Notes: generated by a model not told the origin, from the letters alone. Shown: positions 9,257 through 13,970, numbered from the stretch's first letter. The stretch: DNA of 64,000 nt from an uncultured Chloroflexia bacterium (GCA_963797095.1 CAWCNY010000003.1:416001-480000), one strand, 5' to 3'. Numbers and translations are program-made.

Positions 9257-10150
9257 TTGGTTGCCTTTCTTGAGTTCTTCGTGCTCCTTATCATCCCCGC
9301 CTTCCGGCGTCGCCTCGTCAATTGGCTGTTCTGGATTTGGAACAAGCCAACCCGGGATTCTCTTCTGTCAGGTTCGGTTCTGTCCAGATTGGTCCTCGAC
9401 CTTTGTCGGAGTAAACACGAACTGCTGGTGGAGAATGCTCTACTGCGCCAGCAACTCGTTGTGCTGCGCAGGCAGGTCAACCGTCCTCAACTCACCAATC
9501 TGACCGCGCTCTGTTGGTGCTGTTAGCTGGTAGGCTCCGAACTTGGAAGGGCGCTCTACTCATCGTCCAACCCGATACTCTGCTCCGCTGGCACCGAGCG
9601 GGCTTCCGTTTGCTCTGGAGGAGAAAGTCCAAGACCGATTCTCGCAAACCGAAGATACCTGCTGAGACTGTACAGCTGATCAAGCGGATGGCCGTCGAGA
9701 ACAGACTGTGGGGAGCAGAGCGCATAAAGGGTGAACTGCTCAAGCTCGATATTCAGGTATGCAAACGCACTGTTCAAAAGTACATACGCCAGGTACGCAG
9801 GCCAGCACCTTCGGACCACAAGTCGAATCAGAACTGGCGTACCTTTGTCCGTAACCACGCAAGCCAAATCTGGGCAGTTGATTTCCTTCCTGTGTACGAT
9901 TTGTTCTTCCGGCCTATGTTCATCTTCTTCATTATAGAGCTTGGCTCCCGACGTGTTGTGCACTTCGGCGTTACCCGTTCTCCCACTGATGAGTGGACTG
10001 CACAGCAACTTAGGGAGGCAACGCCATTCGGTGAGGCACCGAGGTTCCGGATCAGGGACAACGATAGCAAGTACGGAGAGAAGTTCACCGTGTAGCAGTC
10101 AATAGTGGCATCAAGGTGCTGCGGACGCCGTATAGAGCACCAAGGGCGAA
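9257..10150 (+). pseudogene. Integrase-core (rve) transposase, 5' part
   Basis: ENALLRQQL, TLLRWHR, WGAERIKGEL, WAVDF, RDNDSKY, RTPYRAPRA; frameshifts near 9500 and 10090. Confidence 0.85.
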
Positions 10151-10160
10151 GGAGTAGGCT

Positions 10161-12272
10161 TCATACTGCACCTCCATTGGCTGTTTGCGTGTAGAGTTTC
10201 TCGTGTCCGCGTTTGCGTTGCCATTTTGCCGGTAGGCTAGCCTCCGGCAGGTAGTAGAGCCACTCACCTTTGTCACTGCCTCGTTTGTCACTGCCTCGTT
10301 CGGCCCCCAACAATCCCCACCGCCGCCAGCACTTCACCGTGTCTGCGCATACATCCAGGCGCCCCGCTAGCTCCGCCTCGGTCAGTAACCCCCGTTCCCG
10401 TAACCGTTCGTAATGATCCTTCAATTGGTGGCTCCGCCGTAGCTTGCCGATCAGTGCTCCATGGAACCGTTTGCCGTCTCGCGAGTGCCAACCCCTAGCA
10501 TTTAGCTCAGACGCTACCTGCCCGTCCGTGTGATCCTCCAGCAAACGGTCGATCTCCTCTACCGTCCCTCGCTCGGTTGGTCGCATCTCCACTGCTGATT
10601 TAGGCTTGGTGATTTGCACTGTTGTCGTCCTCCCGCCTCGGAAGCGCACCTGCGCCACGATCTGCTCTCCTTTGAGTAACGTCACATCGCTAATCATCAA
10701 GCGCATCATCCGCTTTCGCTCCCGGTCCGGCGTGCGCTCATCATACCACAGCCGAGGCACGTCACGAGCCAGCCCCAGCACCGCCTCCCGTTGAGCCGTA
10801 CTTGGGATGTGCGCTGCCTGACGTTGTTGCTCGGCTTCCTCTTGTGCCTTGGCAAGCAGTCGTAGCTTGCTGTTCCACTCGGCTTCCAGCACGTCTGCTA
10901 CCAATCGGTTTTCCGGGTCCACCCGCAGGTACCGCCGCTGCGCCAACTCGGCCTCGTATCGTGCCCGCTCTACCTGCTGACGGCGCAGCCTATCAGCCTC
11001 TTCTGCCCTTGCCACTACCTCAGCTTGCACAGCCAGCGCCACCTCCAGCGCCTCGGGTGTAATTGCCGCCACCAGCAACTCCCCTATCGCCACATCAACT
11101 ACTCCGCCTGGTACTACCTGGCAAGCCGTCCGTCCCTGCTGGATCGTCCTGCTCTGGCAGACGTAGTCTGGCACCAACCGCCCTCTCCGCTGGTGGTAAC
11201 GCAGTGTCATTTGTTCTCCGCATCGTCCGCAGATTACCAGCCCTTGCAGTAATGCTGGACCTTCCCGCGCAAGACAACCAACTCGCTCGCTGGTATGCCC
11301 CTTGGTATGCGCTCGGGCGTTCTCGCTTAGCTGGCGTTGGTTACGCTCATACTCCTCCAGGCTAATGTAACCCTCATGTGCCTGCGGGTACAGCACCATC
11401 CACTGCTCACGAGGCAATATTCGTACGCGTACCCGCCCCTCGACCAGGGACGTACGGGTGCGACCGAACACAAACACCCCAGCATAGCGTGGGTTGTGCA
11501 ACAGGTGCAGCGCCGTGGAGTGCAGCAATGGCCCCCAGTACACCTCGCCGCGGTGAGGACCAGTGCGCACATGATGGGGGAAGTTCAGCCCCGCTTCGCG
11601 GAAGCTGCGCACCGTGCCGCTCGCCGAATCGGTGCGACGAAAGGTCTCAAACAAGAGCTGTACTGCCTGCTGCACCTGCTGATCCGGGTCGCGGATCACC
11701 TGTTCGTCCTCGCGGTAAGCAAAGCCAATTGGCAGCGGCAATTTCAGTGCCCCGCGCCGCGCTTTGTTAAGGATGCCACCCCGCAGCCGTGCCCGCAACA
11801 CATGCAGTTCGGCTTCACTCATGGCACCCTTCAGCCCGAGCAATAGCCTGTCGTTGAAGGCAGAGGGATCGTAGACGCCGTCCTCGTCCAGGATAAGGGT
11901 GTCGGTCAGAGCGCAAATCTCCAGCAAGCGGTGCCAGTCCGAGTTGTTGCGCGCCAGCCGTGAAACCTCCAACCCCAGCACGATGCCGACATGGCCCAAG
12001 CCGACTTCGGCGACAAGGGTCTGGAAACCGGCCCGGTCAGCAGCAGAAGCACCCGATTGACCCTGGTCGCCATCGATGACTACGATGCGCTCCAGTGGCC
12101 AGCCGAGAGCGACCGCCCGCTCACGCAAGGCGTATTGGCGTTTGGTGCTCTCGCTGTTCTCCAGCACCTGCCGAAGGGAACTCTGTCTGATGTACAGGTA
12201 GGCGGTGCGCTGCAGGTGCTGAGCGGTAACCTTGTCGTGGTCCGCGTGGTTCATCTGGTTCATCTGGTTCAT
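10161..12272 (-). CDS. Large serine recombinase
   Basis: YIRQSS catalytic Ser, DQGQSG, EVSRLARN, recombinase domain NPRYAG, zinc ribbon CGRC..YVC..C, coiled coil, C-terminal HTH. Confidence 0.95.
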   Translation of the reverse strand: MNQMNQMNHADHDKVTAQHLQRTAYLYIRQSSLRQVLENSESTKRQYALRERAVALGWPLERIVVIDGDQGQSGASAADRAGFQTLVAEVGLGHVGIVLGLEVSRLARNNSDWHRLLEICALTDTLILDEDGVYDPSAFNDRLLLGLKGAMSEAELHVLRARLRGGILNKARRGALKLPLPIGFAYREDEQVIRDPDQQVQQAVQLLFETFRRTDSASGTVRSFREAGLNFPHHVRTGPHRGEVYWGPLLHSTALHLLHNPRYAGVFVFGRTRTSLVEGRVRVRILPREQWMVLYPQAHEGYISLEEYERNQRQLSENARAHTKGHTSERVGCLAREGPALLQGLVICGRCGEQMTLRYHQRRGRLVPDYVCQSRTIQQGRTACQVVPGGVVDVAIGELLVAAITPEALEVALAVQAEVVARAEEADRLRRQQVERARYEAELAQRRYLRVDPENRLVADVLEAEWNSKLRLLAKAQEEAEQQRQAAHIPSTAQREAVLGLARDVPRLWYDERTPDRERKRMMRLMISDVTLLKGEQIVAQVRFRGGRTTTVQITKPKSAVEMRPTERGTVEEIDRLLEDHTDGQVASELNARGWHSRDGKRFHGALIGKLRRSHQLKDHYERLRERGLLTEAELAGRLDVCADTVKCWRRWGLLGAERGSDKRGSDKGEWLYYLPEASLPAKWQRKRGHEKLYTQTANGGAV

Positions 12273-12627
12273 CGTGCGACCTCCCGCTGTGCGTGTTGTG
12301 CATGTTGTGCATGTTGTGCGTGTTCGACCATAGTGTGGCCAATACGGTGATGAAGGTGCGAGCGTGCTCAGAGCTGGCTATGGTGGGTGTGGTGGGTGTG
12401 GTGGGTGTGGTGGGTGTGGTGGGTGTGGTGGGTGTGGTGGGGTTTGGCCCATTAGGCCCAAGGTCGGCCGGGGGTTGCTGCCGGGCTGCAAATGGCGGGT
12501 CCGCCCTGGACTGCAACCAGGCAGCTATGCCCCGCCTTAGCACCAAGGCCATTCCTACCGGGGCTCTGCTCGGGCGTGGCATAGCCAGAGCCCAATTGCG
12601 TAGCACCTCGTAGTCCGAAGTTGCCAA
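12121..12627 (-). CDS. Small LSR-associated protein, probably expressed as a -1 frameshift extension of the HTH gene
   Basis: DYEVLR..AL..GMALVLRRGIAAWL; weak TTG start; frame stays open back to the A7 run at 12708-12714; contains (PTT)n repeats. Confidence 0.55.
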   Translation of the reverse strand: MATSDYEVLRNWALAMPRPSRAPVGMALVLRRGIAAWLQSRADPPFAARQQPPADLGPNGPNPTTPTTPTTPTTPTTPTTPTIASSEHARTFITVLATLWSNTHNMHNMHNTHSGRSHDEPDEPDEPRGPRQGYRSAPAAHRLPVHQTEFPSAGAGEQREHQTPIRLA

Positions 12628-12701
12628 TGAAGTTGCCGATGAAGTTGCCGATGAAGTTGCTGACGACGCCAGGTTGGGCCTCGTCAGCGCGGCGGGGCCC
12701 G

Positions 12702-13172
12702 TCAGGCTTTTTTTCCGTGCCTGGCCAGAGCACGCTCGACGCTGCGCGGGTGCACCAGCAGGCCAAAACGTAGTTCGAGCAGTTCGACCAGGTCGGCTGT
12801 CCGCAGGCGTGGCTGCTGCTCCAGTTGTTCGAGCAGGAAACCGACGACCTTGGGAGTGAGCTTGTGAGCGGAGCGGGGCCCTGGTCGAGCGGGCAACAGT
12901 CCTGAGAGGCCGCCAGTTTTCCAGGCAGCCTGGGCAGCGTAGAATGAGGGACGTGAGAAGCCGAAGGCGGCTGCGGTGGAACTGACAGGTTGGCCTTCGA
13001 CCAGTACCCGGCGCAGCATCTCGTACTTGACTTGCAGCAGATCGCGGGGGTCGAAGAAAGGGTCGCCCTGGGTGAAGGCAGGATCGAGTACAGCCTCGGG
13101 ATGGGGATTGAGGGTTCGGGTGGTGTGCAGAGCAGCGACCTTGGGGTCGAGATCGGGCAAGTGCAACTCCAA
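12702..13172 (-). CDS. Helix-turn-helix protein (Y4bC-like)
   Basis: FFDPRDLLQVKYEMLR, FGFSRPSFY, GL.GL.P.RPGP..AHKL, HPRSVERAL. Confidence 0.85.
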   Translation of the reverse strand: MELHLPDLDPKVAALHTTRTLNPHPEAVLDPAFTQGDPFFDPRDLLQVKYEMLRRVLVEGQPVSSTAAAFGFSRPSFYAAQAAWKTGGLSGLLPARPGPRSAHKLTPKVVGFLLEQLEQQPRLRTADLVELLELRFGLLVHPRSVERALARHGKKA

Positions 13173-13226
13173 CTACACTAATTACACCCGTTGCGGCAGC
13201 TAGGATAGCTGAGGTAAGGTAAGGCG

Positions 13227-13255
13227 ATTATGCCACCATATGAGTGCATAGTCAA
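13227..13255 (-). promoter_or_regulatory. Sigma70-like promoter for HTH-ORF2-LSR
   Basis: TTGACT-N17-CATAAT on the minus strand. Confidence 0.65.
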
Positions 13256-13398
13256 GACCTGAGTGGCAAATCTGAGCGAGAGAATGGCCAGTCTGGAAGT
13301 CACAATTGGGACAACTACGGCGTAATCCGCTTGACAGAGACTGCATAATCCGCCTAACACTCCTAACACTACTTATGAGAAAGGCTGGTGGGATCGGT

Positions 13399-13697
13399 CT
13401 ACCCACGGAGCACCTCACAGAGTAACACCAATTGCAGGAGATCCTCAAAGCGGAAGAGGGCACGGCCGGCGGCAATAGCGACGAAAGGATCAGGCGACGC
13501 TAGACTGGTCCACTCGAGTGGTAGGGAGCGGACTTGGGAGTCCAGAGGGTCCGCAAAGAAGCAGACACGCCAATGGCCCCAGTTATGACGGATACTAAAG
13601 ACCTCGAAGCGCCGTCCAAACCAAGGGCGGAAGGGGTGGATTACTTCGAAGAACTGTGGACCGTCAGCCTCACCGGGTGTAGTTGACGGCTTAGAAT
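13399..13697 (-). CDS. DUF5372 (Y4bD/Y4pK)-like ORF with no start codon in the integrated state
   Basis: Hand translation: [99 protein letters not shown]; not in the ORF track; family assigned from recalled motifs. Confidence 0.8.
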
Positions 13698-13970
13698 AAT
13701 GCTTTCTGTGAGAGATTCCTGGGGAGCGTCCGCCGCGAGTGCCTGGACCATGTGCTGATTCTTGGCGAGAAGCACCTATACCGAGTGGTCAGAGAATACG
13801 TCCAGTACTACAACTCGGCGCGCCCGCACCAAGGCATTGCCCAAGCTATCCCGAAAGTGGCACGATCACCTGTGCAAGAAGGTCAATCGGGTGCTGATGG
13901 TGTTGCTGCTAAGATAATCAGCTTTCCTGTTTTGGGTGGCTTGCATCACGATTACCGAAGGGCGGTCTGA
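13698..13970 (+). pseudogene. rve transposase, 3' part
   Basis: [35 protein letters not shown]. Confidence 0.88.

Follow-up and report, generated by a model that had tools for sequence, protein, structure and literature searches.

The element examined here carries a DUF5372 gene that has a complete conserved domain and lacks a start codon of its own, which raises the question of when its protein can be made. The element lies in the window, a 64,000-nucleotide stretch of DNA from an uncultured Chloroflexia bacterium (GCA_963797095.1 CAWCNY010000003.1:416001-480000). A sequence-only reading of this DNA had proposed that the gene is completed by circularisation. Comparative analysis makes this explanation probable. 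In this reading, a large serine recombinase (LSR) mobilizes an IS-like element of 3549 bp whose attP site falls within the 5' end of the DUF5372 gene; the gene is whole only in the joined or circular form, and the protein would act on the LSR in the circle. The anatomy of the element is conserved in the family, and DNA in which its ends are joined occurs in public metagenomes.

The element and its insertion site

The element occupies positions 10149-13699 on the minus strand and contains four genes, encoding DUF5372, a helix-turn-helix (HTH) protein, a small ORF and the LSR. It interrupts an rve_3-type IS transposase gene, with the core dinucleotide TT at either end. The 5' part of the transposase gene (9514..10150, plus strand) has a frame break near 10093; its 3' part, identified from the reading frames and by comparison with an intact homologue, L003, lies at 13698..13970 (plus strand) and begins at an N-A-F-C-E-R motif. 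L003 (rve_3, E 2.9e-12) is an unoccupied copy of the IS in the same genome. It is 76% identical; its alignment with the left flank reaches 10150, and that with the right flank starts at 13698. In addition, removal of the element in silico restores the transposase reading frame. Because this empty-site homologue and the restored frame set the boundaries, the core can be defined as TT, located on the minus strand at 10149..10150 on the LSR side (attR, comprising the P arm, the core and the host B' arm) and at 13698..13699 on the DUF5372 side (attL, comprising the host B arm, the core and the P' arm). The 2-bp core proposed earlier is thus independently supported, and the 2-bp overlap at the crossover fits L003, with no target duplication beyond the core.

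The P arm of attP (10151..10175, minus strand) contains a Shine-Dalgarno (SD) sequence, GGAGG, at 10175-10171, followed after six nucleotides by an ATG at 10164-10162. The stop codon of the LSR, TGA at 10163-10161, overlaps this ATG in the form ATGA. Both the sequence and the coordinates are as first described. Judged from the window, the family consensus and natural junction contigs, the arm also holds the first 4 2/3 codons of the DUF5372 ORF of the circular form. The P' arm (13674..13697, minus strand) lies inside the N-terminal extension of DUF5372 and is an inverted repeat of the P arm. It carries the GTCAACTACACC motif, which 82 of 90 loci have at a constant spacing from the core. Specifically, each arm holds the imperfect inverted repeat AGGTGCAGT, 14-22 nt away from the core, and in the P arm this recombinase-arm repeat forms the outer portion.

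The LSR (10161..12272, minus strand; 703 aa) matches Resolvase (PF00239, 2.2e-18), Recombinase (PF07508, 3.5e-14) and Zn_ribbon_recom (PF13408, 1.4e-7), and an XisF/Ccr-like match in NCBIfam falls below the cut-off. Its AF2 model places long antiparallel helices at 406-450 and 456-486, forming a coiled coil (residues ~406-486) within the zinc ribbon, and the protein has a C-terminal HTH-like extension. The predicted domain order, a Resolvase catalytic domain, a recombinase domain and a zinc ribbon with an embedded coiled coil, is that of LSR elements. Among 37 aligned homologues the mean column identity is 66%, and a Y-x-R-Q-S motif at residues 27-31 is invariant (37/37); S31 is the presumed catalytic Ser.

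Upstream of the LSR lies the small ORF (12400..12627, minus strand), with the conserved motif Y-E-x-L-R ... G-L-A-L ... R-G-x-x-A-W. By tblastn, 10 other loci have a counterpart of its N-terminal 40-70 residues in the corresponding place, with weak E-values (4e-8 to 6e-3), and searches of Pfam and NCBIfam gave no match. The end of this ORF is uncertain, as the frame stays open to 12121 across short tandem repeats. The HTH protein (12702..13172, minus strand; 156 aa), assigned from profile matches to HTH_32, HTH_28 and HTH_29 and from synteny in related loci, is similar to the N-terminal DNA-binding part of IS630/IS481 transposases. A sequence scan located a promoter-like site, TTGACT-17-CATAAT (13227..13255, minus strand; 10/12 matches, with a TG extension), between DUF5372 and the HTH gene. 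A comparable site is present in this spacer in 34 of 80 loci versus 0 of 295 control chunks. This is the sole strong promoter-like site and is internal to the element and the same in the integrated and circular states. Since it lies downstream of DUF5372, the operon of the circle would be read in the order HTH, LSR, DUF5372.

The DUF5372 gene and its missing start

The body of the DUF5372 gene (13399..13698, minus strand) consists of 99 codons and a stop (13401-13399), as defined by its frame, Pfam and AF2, and its first codon opens with the second core base. The match to PF17342 (E 1e-16; 61.2 bits against a cut-off of 25) spans residues 19-97 of 99 and profile positions 1-77 of 78. The frame stays open back to 13788 in host DNA, which adds 30 flank codons. 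No ATG, GTG or TTG was found upstream of the domain in the window, host flank included, and the first such codon is 119 of 129, deep inside the domain. The description of this frame as startless was therefore accurate. The AF2 model of the protein (pLDDT 85) is an SH3-like barrel with two helices, and comparison of the fold with solved and viral structures yielded zero matches at E <= 0.001.

When the two ends are joined, the five codons that begin at the P-arm ATG continue into the 99 codons of the body, giving the 104 codons that had been predicted. In the integrated state, the same ATG frame comprises five element codons and 12 host codons before a stop, or 17 aa in all; the earlier figure of 13 codons agrees if it is counted from the junction and includes the stop. 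These ends suggest how the gene would work. The operon of the excised circle, and equally one formed at any head-to-tail junction, would consist of the promoter, the HTH gene, the small ORF, the LSR gene and DUF5372. The SD and the ATG overlapping the LSR stop would be connected to the DUF5372 body through the 2-bp core, and the 104-aa protein could be made. Integration would split the gene between codons 5 and 6, leaving a startless body upstream of the promoter and an SD-ATG whose frame extends over 12 host codons. Production of DUF5372 would then be a readout of the excised state.

Gene-called DUF5372 homologues range from 57 to 172 aa, and the 19 homologues retrieved have 19 distinct N-termini, either host-derived or truncated at an internal Met. 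These erratic lengths and N-termini are explained by an absent start that gene callers cannot find.

Conservation of the junction across the family

DUF5372 has 438 relatives in species genomes, and the record titles name the Chloroflexota, Acidobacteriota, Actinomycetota, Gemmatimonadota, Planctomycetota, Verrucomicrobiota and Proteobacteria. From these relatives, 80 loci from many phyla were retained. On the same strand downstream of DUF5372, an LSR match is present in 70 and an HTH match in 71 of the 80. Element ends were set from DNA motifs alone, and both ends could be placed in 55 of 90 loci. Core dinucleotides are equal at the two ends in 48 of these 55 elements (44 TT, 3 CG and 1 TA), counts that come from loci sharing kinship and do not represent independent events. 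Outside the 48 are L127, where the P-arm codons contain a stop, L029, with unequal cores, and L067, L075, L087, L110 and L119, where an end motif was mislocated or missing. In an HTH-less subfamily, whose elements are ~2.3 kb rather than ~3.5 kb, the cores are TG/TG and TT/TT (3/3), and the in-frame join of ATG or GTG to DUF5372 also recurs in all three. At the sequence level, this covariation validates the predicted crossover point. The genome G047, which has several copies of the element at different sites, is a case in point: a CG core is the sole option that restores the host transposase frame, and the same core sets the ATG in frame with DUF5372. Metagenomes contain related copies in other IS variants, and the target of the family is the catalytic-Glu codons of DDE transposase genes. 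Together with the several sites in G047 and the joined contigs described below, these related copies are indirect evidence that the LSR may excise the element as a circle and insert it again.

The start codon at the junction is ATG in 38 of the 48 elements and GTG in 8, while the remaining 2 have TTG or an ATG shifted by 3 nt in frame. It is preceded at 6 nt by G-A-G-G, and the P-arm consensus reads G-A-G-G-T-G-C-A-G-T followed by the start. Among 42 unique junctions, the interval from the start codon to the HPF motif contains no stop in the DUF5372 frame (0/42), versus stops in 36/42 in each alternative frame. Linker lengths vary by multiples of 3 only (offsets 49, 46 and 70 in 81 of 82 loci), and the most variable alignment columns (21, 24, 27, 36, 45, 51 and 54) correspond to the third bases of codons when the junction is read from the ATG. 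The frames of homologous junctions are thus non-random, open in the DUF5372 frame in 42/42, and DUF5372 genes have no conserved start of their own. These comparisons support the proposal that attP lies inside the gene and that the start would be gained on circularisation. The proposed translational coupling to the LSR fares less uniformly. It is plausible and not universal, with an overlap between the LSR stop and the region of the start codon in 32 of 42 unique junctions. In 8 of 42, and in 3/3 HTH-less elements, the LSR stop is found upstream of the start codon at a distance of 4 to 34 nt (219 nt in one case). Because the motif persists where the LSR stop precedes it, LSR coding does not explain the SD-ATG.

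The alternative that survives best, improbable as it is, holds that DUF5372 is translated from the integrated copy through a non-canonical or internal start, such as the GTG of the Val before HPF or a near-cognate codon. The SD-ATG would be kept merely as the P arm or as the 3' end of the LSR gene, and the in-frame join would be a by-product of fixed attP geometry. Part of the conservation of the P arm does have another cause, as its outer portion is a recombinase-binding inverted repeat, and the presence of AGGTGCAGT in both arms marks a protein-binding site. Moreover, the distance between motif and core is fixed on both sides, so that a frame, once present, would be inherited. However, the P' arm mirrors AGGTGCAGT alone and lacks the leading G and RTG triplet that mark the P arm, so recombinase binding does not fully explain the SD-ATG, and the motif is kept even outside the LSR ORF. 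The possible GTG start, at a conserved Val two codons ahead of His, occurs in 18 of 48 elements, with a different GTG in 4 others, whereas in 26 of 48 the stretch between the core and the domain is devoid of any in-frame ATG, GTG or TTG. Some elements have Ile before the domain, where GTG is impossible, and starting at the Val would delete the first strand of the Pfam domain. Finally, the 20 codons from the core to the domain are stop-free in 42/42, against a stop in 36/42 in the other frames; together with their third-position variability, this indicates that they are translated from further upstream.

The joined form also exists in natural DNA. The public metagenome contig L141 (2689 nt) contains a full LSR gene, the SD-ATG, a DUF5372 ORF of 103 aa (69.3 bits against PF17342), the promoter-like site and the start of the HTH gene. 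A second contig, L140 (1068 nt), runs from the LSR C-terminus through an ATGA overlap into a 102-aa DUF5372 ORF. A search for the junction thus recovered the joined form in related copies, whereas no circle or empty site was found for this organism. Both contigs are compatible with tandem copies as well as with free circles. It is accordingly conceivable, although very unlikely, that the joined ORF is real and is made mainly at head-to-tail tandem integrated copies, which L140 and L141 would reflect. Contigs cannot tell a circle from a tandem, and L130 and L136, in which the junction and a truncated DUF5372 are followed by unrelated chromosomal genes, place a junction in linear DNA. On the other hand, tandem copies were absent from the 90 genomic loci, and the junction pattern was absent from the 10 carrier genomes searched, and several elements were assembled as separate contigs whose ends coincide exactly with the cores. 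As is established for the family, LSRs normally leave attP unrecombined with attL or attR, so a tandem would require an extra event. Expression of the integrated body as a fusion started by the host flank can practically be dismissed: the frame does continue without a stop into host DNA (for 30 codons in the window, with a family median of ~14.5), and 13 of 42 open flanks have some ATG, GTG or TTG, but 29 of 42 have none, as in the window, only 5 of 42 have ATG, and the flanking sequence, which is antisense to a transposase gene, varies among copies.

A candidate recombinase cofactor and its relation to known systems

The control of LSR directionality is a central open problem in biology and in genome engineering. 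The known recombination directionality factors (RDFs) are mutually unrelated and were discovered one at a time. DUF5372, a widespread LSR partner with no known function, is a candidate cofactor family. A predicted complex of the LSR and DUF5372 scored 0.73 versus 0.00 for the best of three controls, although LSI-RDF complexes have already been solved, according to the accessible part of the source (PMC11722253), and LSR-side likeness could account for part of this pass. Among 80 solved complexes, 58 attained the mark for a positive score, as did 2 of 110 mismatched pairs, counts that hold only roughly here, as custom alignments were used. At least 88% of the contacts were common to the runs, and the partner pLDDT was at least 73. 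The modelled interface comprises LSR residues 347-352, 403-423, 487-526 and 541-549, which in the AF2 model are zinc-ribbon strands and the coiled coil's base. The available portion of one study places all LSI RDFs at the junction of DBD2, the zinc domain, and the coiled coil (PMC11795197). DUF5372 may therefore bind the LSR at the spot used by known RDFs and may bias its action while the element is circular. The interface predicted by co-folding at this hotspot supports the earlier suggestion that the protein may act in directionality or target capture.

Which direction would be favored is less certain. If DUF5372 acted as known RDFs do, a directionality factor would, paradoxically, be produced only after excision. 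A gene that is on only after excision ill suits a factor needed before it, and for this reason we tentatively prefer a role in favoring or permitting re-integration or target capture, short of an even chance. The circle-only architecture argues against a classical excision-promoting RDF, which stimulates attL x attR and inhibits attP x attB recombination, and leaves some room for one; we consider this function rather unlikely, and the same is true of some other circle-specific role. A broader scenario, which is possible and somewhat doubtful, is that site-specific recombination both builds and takes apart the gene encoding a directionality cofactor of the recombinase itself. The circle-only cofactor would turn the LSR from excision to integration mode, the reverse of RDF logic, in a self-resetting two-state toggle where every reaction abolishes the state on which it depended, and the family would hop between catalytic-Glu codons of DDE transposase genes as an IS hyperparasite across bacterial phyla.

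The closest parallel is found in the 'suicidal' tyrosine integrases of the SSV type from archaeal viruses and plasmids (SSV1, pTN3 and pT26-2), where the att site lies in an element gene that is whole only in the episome, an arrangement likened to directionality control in the accessible text of a 2021 review (PMC8371274). According to that text, archaeal tyrosine integrases are the only known case of genes that their own recombination site divides (PMC8371274). As in these systems, the recombination site lies within a gene of the element and integration splits it. In contrast, the split gene here is not the integrase but a small accessory gene, DUF5372, which loses just the SD, the start codon and five codons, while the recombinase is a bacterial LSR. 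As this recombinase is a serine enzyme and remains intact, membership in the SSV-type group was rejected, even though the element does partition a gene.

Junction-dependent expression in circular intermediates is also a feature of the Pjunc of IS911/IS3. Other examples, in the portion of the source available, include the TnpX junction promoter of Tn4451/Tn4453, Pcirc of ICEclc and P3'end of ICEKp1 (PMC13023037). Here too, circularisation would create an expression signal that is missing when integrated, and, like Tn4451, the element is moved by an LSR. However, those junctions form or reposition a promoter for the recombinase gene, whereas this one would assemble a coding sequence, the start and the ORF body, of an accessory gene. 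Assignment to the Pjunc/Pcirc type was also rejected, as the promoter-like site is internal and the junction joins the SD and start codon to the ORF body.

LSR transposons of the TnpX/TndX type and the IS607 family are small, are moved by serine recombinases, have circular intermediates and produce no target duplication. The present element resembles them in its size and serine recombinase, in a probable circular intermediate and in the absence of target duplication beyond the core. It differs from TnpX/TndX in belonging to another LSR clade (no DUF4368), in its conserved DUF5372-HTH-LSR set and in its catalytic-Glu target. The serine recombinase of IS607 is small and has its domains in inverted order, as given in the accessible part of the source (PMC4058570), unlike the large one used here. 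Finally, DUF5372 resembles RDFs such as phiC31 gp3, Bxb1 gp47, the TG1 RDF and SPbeta SprB, to the extent covered by the available portions of the sources, in being a small LSR-adjacent protein with no common fold and predicted binding at DBD2 and the coiled coil (PMC11795197, PMC5814800). In contrast to the DUF5372 gene, which is disabled when integrated, known RDFs have ordinary intact genes that are expressed from the integrated prophage and promote excision.

A search of the literature found no earlier description of a circle-completed DUF5372 gene, and the principle of a circle-dependent cofactor gene appears not to have been reported for bacteria or for serine recombinases. With the recombination site in the coding sequence of the cofactor, the state of the DNA would decide if the protein could be produced. 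The element is a compact natural module of ~3.5 kb (~2.3 kb where the HTH gene is missing) that combines a recombinase with short att sites and a state-dependent cofactor, and it might be used as a self-limiting integration device or an excision recorder. The targeting of catalytic-Glu codons in transposase genes suggests, in addition, that the element propagates by inactivating other mobile elements.

Organization and boundaries of the element

The four reading frames of the element all point the same way on the minus strand, from 13699 to 10149. The first is the DUF5372 frame (13698-13399, minus strand), which matches PF17342 with an E of 1e-16 over domain residues 19-97 of 99. It is followed by an HTH protein (13172-12702, minus strand), a small, weakly conserved ORF between the HTH and recombinase genes (12400-12627, minus strand), and a large serine recombinase (LSR) of 703 amino acids with Resolvase, Recombinase, and Zn-ribbon domains (12272-10161, minus strand). 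On either side of the element lies one half of a single plus-strand IS transposase gene. Elsewhere the same genome has an unoccupied copy of this IS (L003), which is 76% identical to the flanks and was typed as rve_3. Its alignment to the left flank ends at 10150 and its alignment to the right flank begins at 13698, so that the two share 2 bp. Moreover, removal of the element in silico restores the transposase frame through P-R-A-N-A-F-C-E-R. The element is therefore 3549 bp long, with a core at each end that reads TT on the coding strand. The window's genome has a single copy. Four whole contigs of 3322-3478 nt (L056, L110, L116, and L085) consist of the element alone and end within a few bases of both cores, as expected of a multi-copy repeat collapsed by the assembler, and they serve as an independent marker of the element ends.

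The best promoter-like site on the coding strand of the element, TTGACT-17-CATAAT with a TG extension, lies between DUF5372 and the HTH gene at 13255-13227 (minus strand). Sites of this kind, with at most one mismatch per hexamer, were found in the DUF5372-HTH spacer of 34 of 80 related loci, compared with none of 295 recombinase-gene pieces of the same size. Given a promoter in this position, the integrated DUF5372 frame is upstream of it and, in the circle, becomes the last gene of the operon.

A DUF5372 frame divided between the element ends

The sequence-only reading had claimed that the start codon and ribosome-binding site (SD) of DUF5372 are supplied from the LSR end only after circularization, and each part of the arrangement was found in the window. 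The DUF5372 frame has no ATG, GTG, or TTG until deep in the domain and stays open for 30 codons into host DNA. At the other end, the LSR stop codon overlaps an ATG with an SD (GGAGG-N6-ATG, with ATGA as the overlap). When the two ends are joined through the core, an uninterrupted frame of 104 codons results, which reads M-K-P-T-P from one end and Y-S-K-P-S from the other before entering the domain. In the integrated state the same ATG runs into host DNA and stops, giving a peptide of 17 amino acids, 12 of which are host-encoded.

Related elements are widespread. A Pfam search found DUF5372 in 16 of 301 genomes of the same phylum, and scanning a single genome for each species yielded 438 relatives. 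The 80 loci retained from these belong, according to the titles of their records, to Chloroflexota, Acidobacteriota, Actinomycetota, Gemmatimonadota, Verrucomicrobiota, Planctomycetota, Proteobacteria, and others. The order DUF5372, HTH, LSR on one strand is nearly universal, with HTH matches at 71 and LSR matches at 70 of the 80 loci, the misses being mostly contig ends. An HTH-less subfamily of about 2.3 kb (L038, L052, L060, L062, L064, and L084), from records labeled Ktedonobacteria or Chloroflexales, has the LSR directly after DUF5372. In this subfamily the SD-ATG is 14-34 nt past the LSR stop and the join is still in frame, in one case through a TG core.

The ends of these elements were located by DNA motifs, with reading frames ignored. 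The LSR end was marked by a 10-base motif, GAGGTGCAGT, close to the recombinase stop, and the DUF5372 end by GTCAACTRCACC, upstream of the invariant H-P-F. The latter motif occurs in 82 of 90 loci, and its distance to the His codon is 49, 46, or 70 nt in 81 of them, so the differences in length are multiples of three. Both ends could be located in 55 of the 90 loci. The core dinucleotides, at positions predicted from the geometry of the window, are equal at the two ends in 48 of the 55 (44 TT, 3 CG, and 1 TA), and they are also equal in 3/3 HTH-less elements (TG/TG, TT/TT, and TT/TT). Such covariation between ends is the expectation for an LSR core. The seven failures comprise four loci with a mislocated motif (L067, L075, L087, and L119), one whose contig begins within the arm (L110), one with unequal cores (L029), and one with both unequal cores and a stop within the arm codons (L127). 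For the three copies in the carrier genome G047, the core could be GG or CG by sequence alone. GG was rejected because it breaks the host reading frame; CG alone restores the transposase frame (Y-C-P-R-G-x-x-E-N-R-I) and also puts the ATG in frame. Host-frame restoration was used here because the target IS was not found unoccupied in G047 or in two other genomes, G107 and G154.

When homologous elements were circularized in silico, the frame and the SD-start proved to be conserved and the junctions did not fall in random frames, as the sequence-only reading had anticipated. The triplet 10 nt after the motif start is ATG in 38 and GTG in 8 of the 48 elements, and the remaining two have TTG or an ATG three bases further in the same frame. 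From the start codon to H-P-F, none of 42 unique junctions contains a stop in the DUF5372 frame, while each of the other frames has at least one in 36 of the 42. The most variable columns of the junction alignment are third codon positions in phase with the start codon, for example Lys or Arg as AAA, AAG, or AGA, Pro as CCN, Ser as TCA or TCG, and Ala or Thr as GCR or ACR. Residue 6, whose first base is the second base of the core, is W, Y, C, S, L, or K, as dictated by the core.

Much of the conservation of the 10-mer can be explained by a site for the recombinase itself. In the consensus, AGGTGCAGT recurs in inverted orientation in the two arms, each time 14-22 nt from the core, and is thus the recombinase-arm site. 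However, the invariant G before AGGTGCAGT, which makes GAGG and often AGGAGGTG, is not mirrored in the other arm, and neither is the RTG triplet, for which the other arm has TGA at the symmetric position. That the motif is simply the C-terminus of the LSR was rejected, since it is kept beyond the LSR stop. While this stop overlaps the start region in 32 of the 42 unique junctions (as ATGA in 19 and 8 nt downstream in 13), it is upstream of the start codon in 8 of the 42 and in 3/3 HTH-less elements. There the SD-ATG is in non-coding DNA, and recombinase coding therefore does not account for the motif. A read-through fusion of LSR and DUF5372 was rejected because the correct core puts the ATG frame, not the LSR frame, in phase.

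Other sources of a start codon are scarce. Between the core and the domain, 26 of the 48 elements have no in-frame ATG, GTG, or TTG, and in 18 a candidate, alone or beside others, is the GTG of a conserved Val two codons before the His. The flanking host DNA, as far as the frame stays open, lacks a start in 29 of 42 cases and has an ATG in just five. Database gene calls for 90 homologues of one subfamily range from 57 to 172 amino acids, and no two of 19 retrieved homologues share an N-terminus, which either derives from the host or results from a cut at an internal Met. The only protein beginning with the junction peptide is that of metagenome contig L141. These erratic lengths and N-termini agree with DUF5372 having no start of its own. 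The division of DUF5372 into a start at one end of the element and a body at the other is a real, conserved property of a widespread element family.

Junction DNA and the possible role of DUF5372

Joined ends were sought in public sequence with a degenerate pattern that spans both arms and is absent from all integrated loci. Thirteen metagenome contigs matched, of which four are real (L130, L136, L140, and L141); the other nine carry no LSR or DUF5372 and were counted as chance. L141 (2689 nt) contains the full recombinase gene, an SD-ATG overlapping its end, and an unbroken DUF5372 ORF of 103 amino acids (PF17342, 69 bits), followed by a promoter-like site (TTGACA/CATAAT) and the first HTH codons. 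Its layout is that of the element, circularly permuted. In L140 (1068 nt), the C-terminal end of the recombinase gene, with an ATGA overlap identical to that in the window, precedes an ORF of 102 amino acids. Because the ends have only the core in common, assembler overlap cannot have joined attL and attR reads. The joined contigs might stem from tandem copies instead of circles, two sources between which the contigs cannot distinguish. The pattern had no match in viral contigs or in 10 carrier genomes, including the window's own, and none of 32 contigs shorter than 6 kb had identical ends, so none of these is an assembler-circularized contig. A search of public runs listed no RNA run with the element. 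Contigs from the four best DNA runs (shares of 0.10-0.21), compared with 9900-13950, contain copies of 90-97% similarity, stop at both element ends, and continue into related transposase sequence. Over this interval they report no circle or empty-site joint and are uninformative on circles either way. In L130 (1303-1450) and L136 (439-590), the LSR end is followed by the junction SD-ATG and by the DUF5372 frame as far as T-H-P (27 codons), beyond which come unrelated ORFs of chromosomal appearance. Both contigs look like fossil junctions in linear DNA and may be remnants of a tandem.

The AF2 model of DUF5372 (pLDDT 85) shows an SH3-like barrel of five strands with two helices after it; residues 1-15 are disordered. 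At E <= 0.001, fold searches found no match in the PDB, where the best were SH3-like barrels of the PsaE, NdhS, and Spt5-KOW type (E 0.05-0.1), or in BFVD, and thus gave no functional lead. NCBIfam has no model for DUF5372. Co-folding with the LSR, which had been proposed from the sequence, supported an association: models of the full recombinase with DUF5372, for which we aligned 37 and 41 sequences ourselves, reached 0.73, 0.73, and 0.74, versus 0.00 for the best of three controls. Of 80 solved complexes, 58 attain the pass mark, as do 2 of 110 mismatched pairs; these counts hold only roughly because our own alignments were used. The runs have at least 88% of contacts in common, with a DUF5372 pLDDT of at least 73. 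At the predicted interface, DUF5372 contributes its conserved H-P-F-R-P and its C-terminal helices, and the recombinase contributes residues 347-352, 403-423, 487-526, and 541-549. [quoted passage not shown] Among the contacts are DUF5372 residues 80-91 and recombinase residues 408-416, 498, 525, and 544-546. Structurally unrelated recombination directionality factors (RDFs) are described as all predicted to bind at the junction of the zinc domain and the coiled coil, which for TG1 was shown by mutation (PMC11795197). Structures of integrase-RDF complexes have been solved (PMC11722253), and the score may therefore owe something to resemblance on the recombinase side. The models support, but do not show, binding of DUF5372 to the recombinase.

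Building on the demonstrated anatomy of the element, its conservation, and the existence of junction DNA, the proposed mechanism is that DUF5372 would be translated from the joined form only, that its translation may be coupled to that of the recombinase, and that it may act on the recombinase. A classical RDF is required before excision and harmful afterwards. A protein made only after excision would better fit a helper of re-integration or target capture, or a blocker of reversal. Hence, it is tentatively proposed that DUF5372 helps or permits re-integration or target capture, or blocks reversal. A classical RDF and other roles in the circle state are each considered only somewhat less likely. 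The element offers a directly testable natural example for directionality control in serine recombinases, and a domain whose function was unknown gains a likely role.

SSV-type tyrosine integrases, exclusive to archaea according to a 2021 review (PMC8371274), are a described case of genes that are split by their own att site. In contrast, the present case is bacterial and its serine recombinase remains whole. Junction-dependent expression is described for Tn4451 TnpX, ICEclc, and ICEKp1 as the assembly of a promoter (PMC13023037), whereas here the coding sequence of a candidate cofactor is assembled. As far as the text of Durrant et al. (2022) was available, the only multi-targeting LSRs mentioned are the DUF4368 ones; its supplementary tables may list the LSRs of this family and their targets. 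The literature searched, supplementary tables aside, contained neither a description of this element family, of a gene that spans the attP of a serine recombinase, or of LSR elements targeting transposase genes, nor the name DUF5372.

Target choice and minor features

The family inserts antisense in DDE transposase genes, at the codons just before the catalytic Glu (10100-10150 and 13698-13750 in the window; L050-L129). Once the elements are removed in silico, recognizable motifs emerge at about 29 of 40 distinct host sites, and 35 of 40 fit a loose pattern. The motifs are P-Q-T-K-G-K-V-E-R, D-N-A-x-A-E-S, N-G-K-A-E-R-F, and Y-C-P-R-G-x-x-E-N-R-I-K-E, beside the P-R-A-N-A-F-C-E-R of the window. 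We take them to be those of IS21, IS3, IS481, and IS1380; only L003 was typed in the analysis, as rve_3. The element thus looks like a parasite of insertion sequences. In the window, the reading frame of the host transposase copy is already broken about 55 nt upstream of where the element sits (10080-10110, plus strand; K-Y-G-E-K-F-T-V-stop, then shifted), and the copy is therefore a pseudogene even apart from the insertion.

Short tandem repeats of 9-12 bases crowd the HTH-LSR spacer and the first LSR codons (12280-12680). Compared with this region, related metagenome copies have 9- and 12-base deletions (12294 and 12617) and a 2-base deletion (12333), and the repeat number appears to vary between copies. 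The small ORF has no family match in Pfam or NCBIfam. Its N-terminal motif, Y-E-x-L-R ... G-L-A-L ... R-G-x-x-A-W, is conserved in tblastn with weak E-values, and counterparts occupy the same position in L051, L073, L080, L083, L087, L094, L099, L103, L111, and L126. It is probably the third gene of the element. One or two copies of GATTAYG precede the promoter-like site in the window (13300-13380, minus strand) and in the DUF5372-HTH spacers of 15 of the 80 loci. This sequence may be an operator, albeit not a general one, being absent from the other 65 spacers. The HTH protein (12705-13172) resembles the N-terminal DNA-binding region of IS630/IS481 transposases (NCBIfam E 1e-11 and 4e-11, far under the model cut-offs), and transposases of this type are the kind of gene that the element targets.
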